Origin: a virus
Taxonomy: Duplodnaviria; Heunggongvirae; Uroviricota; Caudoviricetes
Virus record (IMG/VR): IMGVR_UViG_3300012275_000009
Length of the DNA stretch: 10,582 nt
Reading direction: 5' to 3' (one strand)
The notes under the pieces were generated by a model that was not told the DNA's origin, did not search any database, and worked only from the letters and a program-made list of their open reading frames with translations. Positions 5,101 through 5,762 of the stretch are shown piece by piece (position 1 is the stretch's first letter; every line of letters begins with the position of its first letter). Made by a program: the position numbers and the translations under genes.

Positions 5101-5131
5101 ATGATTTTCGCCGAAGATAGCGACATGATTC

Positions 5132-5160
5132 TTGCATTTTTCAAAAAATCTGGTTAGGAT
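5132..5160 (+). promoter_or_regulatory. Candidate late promoter (PR-prime-like) downstream of Q
   Basis: TTGCAT (5132-5137), a 17-nt spacer, then TAGGAT (5155-5160), in the position where lambdoid phages carry PR-prime/qut. The match to the sigma70 consensus is imperfect and the element overlaps a small hairpin (TTAGGA ttc TCCTAA, 5154-5168). Confidence 0.2.
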
Positions 5161-5206
5161 TCTCCTAACGATGGGCTTTGTGTGTCTACCGTTGATAATC
5201 TTCAAG

Positions 5207-5229
5207 AAACCGCCACCGAGCGGTTTTTT
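5207..5229 (+). terminator. Intrinsic terminator-like hairpin (tR-prime candidate)
   Basis: 7-bp stem AAACCGC (5207-5213) / GCGGTTT (5220-5226) with 6-nt loop CACCGA, and a T6 tract at 5224-5229 that overlaps the 3-prime arm, so only the GC core GCGG plus trailing Ts conforms to a classical terminator. It lies about 50-70 nt downstream of the candidate promoter. Confidence 0.4.
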
Positions 5230-5388
5230 ATTGATGTCAATTGTGTTTTTAAGGCTCTCCTTCCTTAAAGTGTGTTGTACAAAAAACTGGCAGCCAGCTA
5301 CGCTCATTTTGAAAAAGTGACACCCTTCAATGTTTCTTTTGAATGGAATTGCTACCCATAAATCTCTATCAAAAACAGGAGAGCATAT

Positions 5389-5631
5389 ATGGTGGAGCGT
5401 TGTTCTGTTTGTGAGCAGTCATTAAGTTATTCACGAGAAGTTGAACAAGATGGCGTTGAATATAAATCTTGCCCAAAATGTTCTGCTGATGCCGGAGTGC
5501 ACGTTTTTTATAAAACAATAGACTTTGGTTATAGGGATATGGGAGACGGAAGGCATATCGTTCAGTCATGGTGTCCGGCTTGTCGTTCTGGTGAAAAACC
5601 TTCTATACCACCAGCATTTAAATGTTGTTAA
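5389..5631 (+). CDS. Small Cys-rich hypothetical protein (putative zinc ribbon), moron-like
   Basis: 80-aa ORF with a good RBS (AGGAG at 5377-5381, 7-nt spacing). It has CxxC pairs at residues 5/8, 28/31 and 62/65 plus a C-terminal KCC. GC content is lower than the flanking phage genes, and it is bracketed by terminator-like hairpins. Confidence 0.5.
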   Translation: MVERCSVCEQSLSYSREVEQDGVEYKSCPKCSADAGVHVFYKTIDFGYRDMGDGRHIVQSWCPACRSGEKPSIPPAFKCC

Positions 5632-5650
5632 CTCAATGAATTATAAAAAG

Positions 5651-5676
5651 AGGCTGCCTGTGGGCGGCCTTTTTTG
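5651..5676 (+). terminator. Rho-independent terminator downstream of the small Cys-rich ORF
   Basis: Stem AGGCTGCC (5651-5658) / GGCGGCCT (5663-5670), 8 bp with one G-U wobble, loop TGTG, followed by TTTTT (5671-5675). Confidence 0.6.
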
Positions 5677-5762
5677 TGCACTACGCAACTTTTGCGACTC
5701 AGCGCTATAACCAGCTTCTTTCCCTTCACTCGTTGCACTTCCGATAACCGGAGGTGGGAATT

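Follow-up and report, generated by a model that had tools for sequence, protein, structure and literature searches.

The Q cassette of lambdoid phages has been defined as the Q gene, the PR′ promoter, a pause element and a terminator, followed by the late genes (PMC9388147). In lambda, AACGAT at +1 to +6 is a sigma-70-dependent pause element and is followed by a discriminator-like GGG, with the pause itself at +16 (PMC4005639). Downstream of this module, ahead of the lysis genes, there is a slot for additional genes, which in phage SfIV has already been called a moron with a low-GC signature (PMC3851460). Behind homologous PR′/tR′ modules the slot holds stx2AB in Stx phages, cspB and cspF in Qin, orfs 47-49 in SfIV, and orf47 with the orf48 methylase in SfV. 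Our subject is the corresponding gap in IMG/VR record IMGVR_UViG_3300012275_000009, a stretch of 10,582 nucleotides (nt), hereafter the window, which belongs to a lambdoid SfV/HK97-like prophage of E. coli and whose region is 100% identical to strain 47-1826. By the RefSeq annotation of that identical genome, the gap between Q and the holin gene measures 662 bp, from the Q stop codon at 5098-5100 to the holin ATG at 5763, and within it lies an open reading frame (ORF) of 80 amino acids, here called ORF80.

An initial annotation had read the gap as one AT-rich, insulated mini-cassette, with the small ORF as a moron. Every element that it claimed is present at, or a few bases away from, the position assigned to it, and the AT-richness is borne out by a GC content of about 40% over 5000-5600 versus about 50% in the flanks. 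The unity of the cassette is another matter. The promoter, the hairpin and the terminator that come first in the gap form the conserved PR′/pause/tR′ module, which is a property of Q and not of the insert; the moron in the Q-S slot stands, but PR′, the palindrome at its -10 and tR′ had been wrongly assigned to it. The explanation that we favor, and hold to be probable, is that the gap consists of two units placed end to end, a Q regulatory cassette (5101-5229) and a cargo (~5230-5720). The overall architecture of Q cassette, cargo slot and lysis genes is not new, being textbook knowledge and already published for related phages.

Two units between Q and the holin gene

The Q gene and the regulatory elements that follow it are these:

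4348-5100, plus strand: antiterminator Q of the lambda-Q family, 250 amino acids (PF03589, PHROG 127, PDB 7ubm)
5132-5160, plus strand: late promoter PR′, with -35 TTGCAT at 5132-5137, a 17-nt spacer and -10 TAGGAT at 5155-5160 (by lambda homology)
5167-5175, plus strand: predicted transcription start A5167 and sigma-dependent pause element AACGAT, then GGG (by lambda homology)
5204-5229, plus strand: intrinsic terminator tR′, a hairpin with a T-tract (by its fold, conservation in seven prophages, and annotation in SfV and Ayreon)

The Q protein matches Pfam PF03589 at E 9.5e-54 and 180 bits (cut-off 26.7) and Q-lambda in PDB 7ubm at E 8.5e-38, and it is 100% identical to the Q protein of SfV. 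The -35 of PR′ starts 32 nt past its stop codon, and the alignment to the lambda TTGACT-17-TAAATT is gap-free: the window reads TTGCAT, 17 nt, TAGGAT, TCTCCT and AACGATGGG, where lambda reads TTGACT, 17 nt, TAAATT, TGACTC and again AACGATGGG. This last segment is the pause element, which follows the -10 by 6 nt, the same distance as in lambda, and is identical to lambda +1 to +9; by that homology, transcription would be expected to start at A5167. Seven prophages with a Q of this family were aligned (the window, E7476, SfV, NDM1, O157 YB14-1, K-12 Qin and W224N). In all seven, the -35 and the A-rich part of the spacer are invariant and the -10 retains TAnnAT, and the pause element is kept in six, the seventh reading AATGATAGG. 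The spacer of the window, TTTTCAAAAAATCTGGT, lies where lambda has its Q-binding element and is partly similar to the lambda spacer.

It is this homology to lambda PR′, a comparison at the level of sequence, that establishes the promoter, and not its score. TTGCAT-17-TAGGAT was ranked top in the intergenic region by a position weight matrix (PWM) scan, being itself one of only 13 sites that reach its score or exceed it on the two strands of the whole window. A simple consensus scanner detected neither PR′ nor the plus-strand terminators and reported only minus-strand chance matches, since the stems and hexamers concerned fall outside its rules. The promoter-like sequence singled out by the initial annotation is therefore real, but with its lambda homology and its conservation in the seven prophages it is PR′ and not a promoter belonging to the cassette.

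The tR′ hairpin, which had been placed near 5207-5229, folds with -11.8 kcal/mol (z -4.2), a value matched by 1 of 200 shuffles. Its 7-bp stem is fully paired in all seven prophages, with a variable loop and a single compensatory change, from C-G to A-U, in the window; moreover, the records of SfV and Ayreon both annotate the hairpin as a terminator. A transcript begun at PR′ and ended here would be a leader RNA about 60 nt long. Directly past the T-tract, sequence divergence begins among all seven prophages.

With a PF03589 Q, a PR′ just downstream, a pause element, and a terminator ahead of the late genes, the layout is thus that of a lambda-type Q cassette, and 5101-5229 is probably its cis-acting half. 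In common with the lambda arrangement of Q, PR′, 6S RNA and tR′ are the homologous Q, the -35/17-nt/-10 spacing, the identical AACGAT plus GGG at the same distance, and an intrinsic terminator followed by holin and lysis genes. The differences are a predicted leader of about 60 nt versus 194 nt in lambda, a spacer of only partial similarity, the presence of a foreign gene and another terminator between tR′ and S, and, in Q, a block of some 40 residues (~121-159) that lambda Q lacks and that contains DnaJ-like CXXCXGXG repeats. Two considerations count against the cassette explanation. The block sits in the zinc-ribbon arm, which is the part of the protein that contacts the Q-binding element, and the element of the window may therefore differ from that of lambda; and the start site, the pause and the termination efficiencies are extrapolated from lambda. 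Of the 5426 complete E. coli genomes, 2470 have the Q variant with this insertion, which is also the Q of stx2c phages.

For the second unit, the evidence is one of presence and absence. The Q and PR′ module (4348-5229) occurs at 2901 places in 2470 of these 5426 genomes, and segment 5230-5762 in only 24. The features past tR′, up to and including the first late gene, are:

5230-5267, plus strand: junction sequence from the Q cassette to the ORF80 module, absent from E7476, including most of the hairpin at 5248-5269
5377-5381, plus strand: Shine-Dalgarno sequence AGGAG, 7 nt before the ORF80 ATG (read from the sequence)
5389-5631, plus strand: ORF80, the cargo gene, 80 amino acids with two predicted zinc sites (WP_001306866.1, PHROG 7682)
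5646-5675, plus strand: strong predicted intrinsic terminator closing the ORF80 module (-19.6 kcal/mol, z -4.0, 0 of 200 shuffles)
5763-6104, plus strand: holin of the lambda S family, with an MKM dual start, the first late gene past the slot (PF05106, PHROG 126, RefSeq)

At least six distinct cargo sets were found behind one and the same Q/PR′ module:

SfV: orf47 and an N6_N4 methylase
NDM1: two small ORFs and a methylase
O157 YB14-1: two ORFs and a truncated methylase
K-12 Qin: cspF, cspB and ynfU
W224N: a single ORF of 111 amino acids
Stx2c phages: an ORF of 141 amino acids, a methylase-sized ORF, two tRNAs and stx2AB
E7476: defence candidates PDC-M53A/B, then ORF80

The parallel with Stx phages and Qin, which the initial annotation had drawn for stxAB and cspB/cspF, is thereby borne out, as the Stx2c and Qin cargo lies behind a homologous PR′/tR′ module. 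In E. coli E7476 (locus L044, 1272-2855), the two genes between PR′/tR′ and ORF80 match the PADLOC phage-defence candidates PDC-M53A and PDC-M53B, so that the slot also gathers defence candidates; a literature search on PDC-M53 and on SfV orf48 found nothing specific. The ynfU gene of the Qin slot lies on the minus strand (locus L047, 5767-5937) and is annotated as a putative zinc-binding protein. YnfU was considered as a relative of ORF80 and rejected, the proteins being unrelated, and SfV orf47 and its relatives were rejected as counterparts because they are not cysteine-rich.

Alignment with related prophages, which had been suggested as a way to find the insertion boundaries, places the left one at 5229/5230. 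Similarity between the window and SfV restarts at ~5720-5740, just ahead of the holin ribosome-binding site, and this is the right boundary against SfV; against E7476, the one other setting of the ORF, homology restarts near 5268. As delimited by these alignments, the cargo unit is ~5268-5720 and comprises the leader, ORF80 and the terminator. The latter is not homologous to the similarly placed terminators of SfV and Ayreon, and at -19.6 versus -11.8 kcal/mol for tR′ it is predicted to be the stronger of the two, as had been claimed. We therefore have considerable confidence that ~5230-5720 is a single-gene moron in the slot between tR′ and the holin gene. ORF80 is an insert that is present or absent (24 versus 2470 genomes), with low GC and its own predicted terminator, and in place of a segment that is syntenic and conserved across the family we find varied cargo. 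Low GC and an own terminator are likewise features of the SfIV moron (PMC3851460). Unlike the other morons of the Q-lysis slot, the cargo of the window is one gene for a predicted zinc protein of 80 amino acids, and its own promoter is tentative.

Expression of ORF80

From the definition of the Q cassette (PMC9388147), Q-mediated read-through is the expected route of ORF80 expression. RNA polymerase would initiate at the constitutive PR′, at about A5167, and would pause near +16, where sigma-70 rebinds the -10-like AACGAT. In the absence of Q, it would terminate at tR′ and release the short leader. With Q bound in the promoter spacer, the polymerase would become termination-resistant and pass through both terminators, and ORF80 would then be highly expressed together with the lysis and morphogenesis genes. 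In the lysogen, ORF80 would be kept low by tR′, with expression from leak-through only, or from a weak regulated promoter of its own if one exists, and the terminator behind ORF80 would shield the holin gene from stray transcription. Expression this late would be appropriate for a protein whose target is phage DNA after replication or packaging, or for one that opposes restriction by the host.

Besides read-through, ORF80 may have its own class II promoter of the CRP/FNR type, expressed in the lysogen when catabolite-derepressed, which would make it a moron of the classic kind that is active in lysogens. This is a possibility that we take seriously without thinking it probable. Neither the consensus scan nor the PWM scan yields a sigma-70 match above background between tR′ and ORF80, and the case for a promoter is built on a different feature:

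5316-5354, plus strand: conserved bipartite element, tentatively a class II CRP/FNR-like promoter (alignment of 12 Enterobacterales homologues)

In the gap-free alignment of these 12 homologues, tgtGAt-N5-gTCA is followed by about 20 unconserved bases and TGnTA, with information peaks only at GA, TCA and TGnTA. The window has aGTGA-N6-TCAat at 5316-5331, then 18 unconserved nt, then TGcTA at 5350-5354, so that the center of the CRP-like site (5323.5) is 29.5 bp upstream of the TA in TGcTACCCA, and this is the geometry of class II activator-dependent promoters. The spacing is fixed across diverged homologues in which the spacer and flanks are not conserved, although shared ancestry may imitate conservation, and the element may alternatively serve another protein as its operator or be a feature of the RNA. 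Top CRP-like matches are found 62-67 nt upstream of the ATG at 8 loci from 5 genera, but the site in the window agrees at 7 of 10 consensus positions, and such matches occur at chance level across the window (41 versus 39.5 expected). Moreover, the putative -10, TACCCA, has no near-invariant T at -7, and the same is true of most homologues. At several loci the genes upstream are on the opposite strand, so that a local promoter is needed there, and in E7476 the 120 nt upstream accompany ORF80.

Two further observations concern the leaders of the family. GATC (Dam) sites lie within the bipartite element of several homologues (loci L005, L006, L009, L012, L016 and L023), not in that of the window, a suggestive observation for a family associated with Dam-class methylases (see below). 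Hairpins that sequester the Shine-Dalgarno sequence are predicted in the leaders of Enterobacter (L006, 5945-6010, z -3.3) and Kosakonia (L007, 5850-5912, z -1.9); in the leader of the window, a hairpin of this kind in the 5′ untranslated region is not significant (z -1.1).

The ORF80 family and its possible role

ORF80 is a real gene. Its product is RefSeq WP_001306866.1, annotated as a hypothetical protein, and residues 1-80 of 80 match PHROG 7682, a family of unknown function, at E 7.2e-60; PHROG has no match for any other ORF on either strand of the gap. The strong ribosome-binding site that had been noted for it is confirmed by the AGGAG. The gene is at least 98.5% conserved across 23 genomes, and 7 of the 10 differences between the copies in the window and E7476 are at third codon positions. 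There are 20 close homologues, and the family profile is matched by 289 clusters at 50% identity. Residues C5, C8, C28, C31, H38, C62, C65 and C79 are invariant in the family alignment, a Cys/His pattern that fits two predicted zinc sites. The AlphaFold2 model is a confident one, with a predicted local distance difference test (pLDDT) score of 84. The protein was assigned to no family by a Pfam search; a sequence search of PDB returned nothing, two structure searches gave no significant match, NCBIfam gave only a sub-threshold match to the FmdB zinc ribbon, and PADLOC gave none. A degenerate HNH domain (HNH/beta-beta-alpha-Me) was considered for ORF80 and rejected, the hhalign profile comparison giving a probability of 1%.

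What can be said of function comes from the company that the family keeps. Neighborhoods were surveyed at 39 loci from GTDB species representatives, and among the 111 genes within two positions of an ORF80 homologue were 12 D12 Dam-class, 10 N6_N4 and 3 MT-A70 methylases, as well as 6 members of the PADLOC type II restriction enzyme family and 2 of DpnII. In Firmicutes, Bacteroidota and other phyla, the homologue is located within type II restriction-modification operons, in the order D12 Dam-class methylase, restriction enzyme (PADLOC REase_II, E 6.5e-123, or DpnII), ORF80 homologue, N6_N4 methylase. At least 10 Enterobacterales prophages have the homologue between Q and the lysis genes, with a Q of either PF03589 or PF06530, and several of the Enterobacterales prophage copies adjoin an MT-A70 or N6_N4 methylase; in Kosakonia, the homologue is immediately upstream of a methylase 82% identical to SfV orf48. 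Fusions of the domain were found as well: seven HNH nucleases and a NOV_C / PD-T4-1-like nuclease begin with it, and in a DGQHR/DndB-like protein it forms the C-terminus.

The likeliest role of ORF80, with its two predicted zinc sites, is to bind DNA in the service of adenine methylation or restriction; it might modulate a methyltransferase, for instance, or work against restriction. Put more fully, ORF80 would represent, on its own, a DNA-binding two-zinc domain not described before. In bacteria, this domain would provide HNH and PD-(D/E)xK restriction nucleases with their reader module and would also occur as an accessory gene of DpnII-like (Dam-class) restriction-modification operons; temperate phages would carry it in the Q-lysis slot, either by itself or together with an adenine methyltransferase, for late and possibly CRP-controlled expression as a factor that opposes restriction or controls methylation. 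Taken in all its parts, this fuller reading is tentative, and we think it unlikely to be right throughout. Several facts also count against the explanation that we favor, in the part that concerns ORF80. No methyltransferase adjoins ORF80 in the window, where 3.5 kb separate the gene from the nearest methylase, which is upstream in the early region at 1158-1811; in Photorhabdus, the copies stand alone on the chromosome; ORF80 is encoded by none of the sequenced phage isolates, a tblastn search of 50,697 phage records having given no match; and the argument for function is one of guilt by association only. From the window and Photorhabdus copies, which have no adjacent methylase, it follows that a methylase partner is not obligatory.

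Two described systems invite comparison. The Com protein of phage Mu is a small zinc-finger regulator encoded beside the mom DNA-modification gene. Like Com, ORF80 is a small cysteine-rich phage protein, predicted to be expressed late and located in many relatives beside a DNA-modification gene; unlike Com, it has no modification gene next to it in the window, no sequence similarity between the two was detected (ORF80 has no Pfam match at all), and the fusion of its domain to nucleases suggests binding of DNA rather than mRNA. With the HNH-type (McrA-like / type IV-like) restriction nucleases it shares the domain that stands N-terminal to the HNH or NOV_C / PD-T4-1-like part, but ORF80 stands alone, with no nuclease domain, and does not resemble HNH in the profile comparison above.

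ORF80 could instead be the remnant of a two-gene cargo, a zinc protein and an N6_N4 adenine methyltransferase, from which the methylase has been lost, leaving little present function. Such pairs exist, in the Kosakonia prophages with the orf48-like methylase downstream and in Proteus, Xenorhabdus and Sodalis with a methylase directly upstream of the homologue. Decay also occurs in the slot, as seen from the truncated methylase of the O157 prophage, and the homologue of Yersinia similis is a pseudogene. ORF80 of the window, however, is intact, with its own terminator 15 nt downstream and no methylase fragment in 5632-5762; its conservation in the 23 genomes, the mostly third-position substitutions relative to E7476, and the intact solitary copies conserved across Photorhabdus species also count against it, and we regard a remnant as improbable.

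Some details of individual loci are recorded here. In Yersinia similis (L016, ~6001-6240), the homologue has an in-frame stop at codon 18 and is likely a pseudogene. The Photorhabdus homologues (L017-L024 and L027) occupy a conserved chromosomal, non-prophage spot near zwf, flanked on one side by a RidA-like gene, a helix-turn-helix (HTH) gene and a HipA fragment, and on the other by a pair of SMR transporter genes. One contig labelled Vagococcus sp. WN89Y (L015) carries DUF968, a Q21-family Q and an SfV-like methylase that are nearly identical to those of the Kosakonia locus L014; its enterobacterial-type prophage genes are likely to be assembly contamination.

Small hairpins, neighboring genes and significance

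The initial annotation had also pointed to two small perfect hairpins in the gap, and both are present, at 5153-5169 and 5248-5269. The first is the following:

5153-5169, no strand assigned: perfect 7-bp palindrome GTTAGGA-ttc-TCCTAAC, overlapping the -10 hexamer and +1, regarded as incidental

That these hairpins (5154-5168 and 5249-5268) function in the cassette, as operators or RNA structures, seems to us very improbable. Their arms are perfect, and the RNA fold of the first (-8 kcal/mol, z -3.0) is better than 199 of 200 shuffles. However, this palindrome overlaps the -10 and +1 of PR′, so that it lies outside the PR′ transcript, to which it would contribute only its last three bases from a start at A5167; and it is specific to the window, the sequence being non-palindromic in the six other aligned prophages. 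The second folds weakly (-5.1 kcal/mol, z -2.1, matched by 7 of 200 shuffles) and lies within the junction that is not retained with ORF80 in E7476. Scans of the window with Rfam (E up to 1) and for tRNAs gave no match in the gap region.

The notion that ORF80 is a conserved core late gene of the phage family, prompted by its place in the late operon right before the holin gene and by the like position of homologues in the prophages of other genera, is contradicted by the genome counts, with ORF80 accompanying this Q/PR′ module at about 1% of its E. coli places and the module shared without ORF80 by SfV, Ayreon, mEp460 and the Stx2c phages, and by its absence from all 50,697 phage records, and it is scarcely credible.

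Around the gap, the gene order is KilA-N, DUF968, Q (4348-5100), the 80-aa ORF (5389-5631), holin (5763-6104), lysozyme, Rz, HNH and terminase. The holin gene begins ATG AAA ATG (Met-Lys-Met) at 5763-5771; in lambda, the same dual-start motif gives the S107/S105 antiholin/holin pair. Runs of N (masked) are present at 331-382 and 6860-6988 of the window, the second within Rz/Rz1, and a 187-aa ORF at 6568-7131 is an artefact because its reading runs through this N run. Between Rz and HNH/terminase, a 184-aa ORF (7209-7763) belongs to PHROG 6169, of unknown function, and gives a faint, sub-threshold match to the SLATT domain; it may mark a second cargo slot.

The value of the analysis lies in a precise map, in which the conserved regulatory module is separated from exchangeable cargo at 5229/5230, and the same Q/PR′ module as in the window drives stx2 in Stx2c phages. 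The unnamed ORF80 family comprises some 290 clusters at 50% identity, whose members turn up again and again with adenine methyltransferases, with type II restriction enzymes and in nuclease fusions. Should ORF80 indeed be a methylation-linked DNA-binding or anti-restriction factor, it would be a new small-protein player in the restriction conflicts between phage and host, and it would put a name to a domain left blank in current databases.

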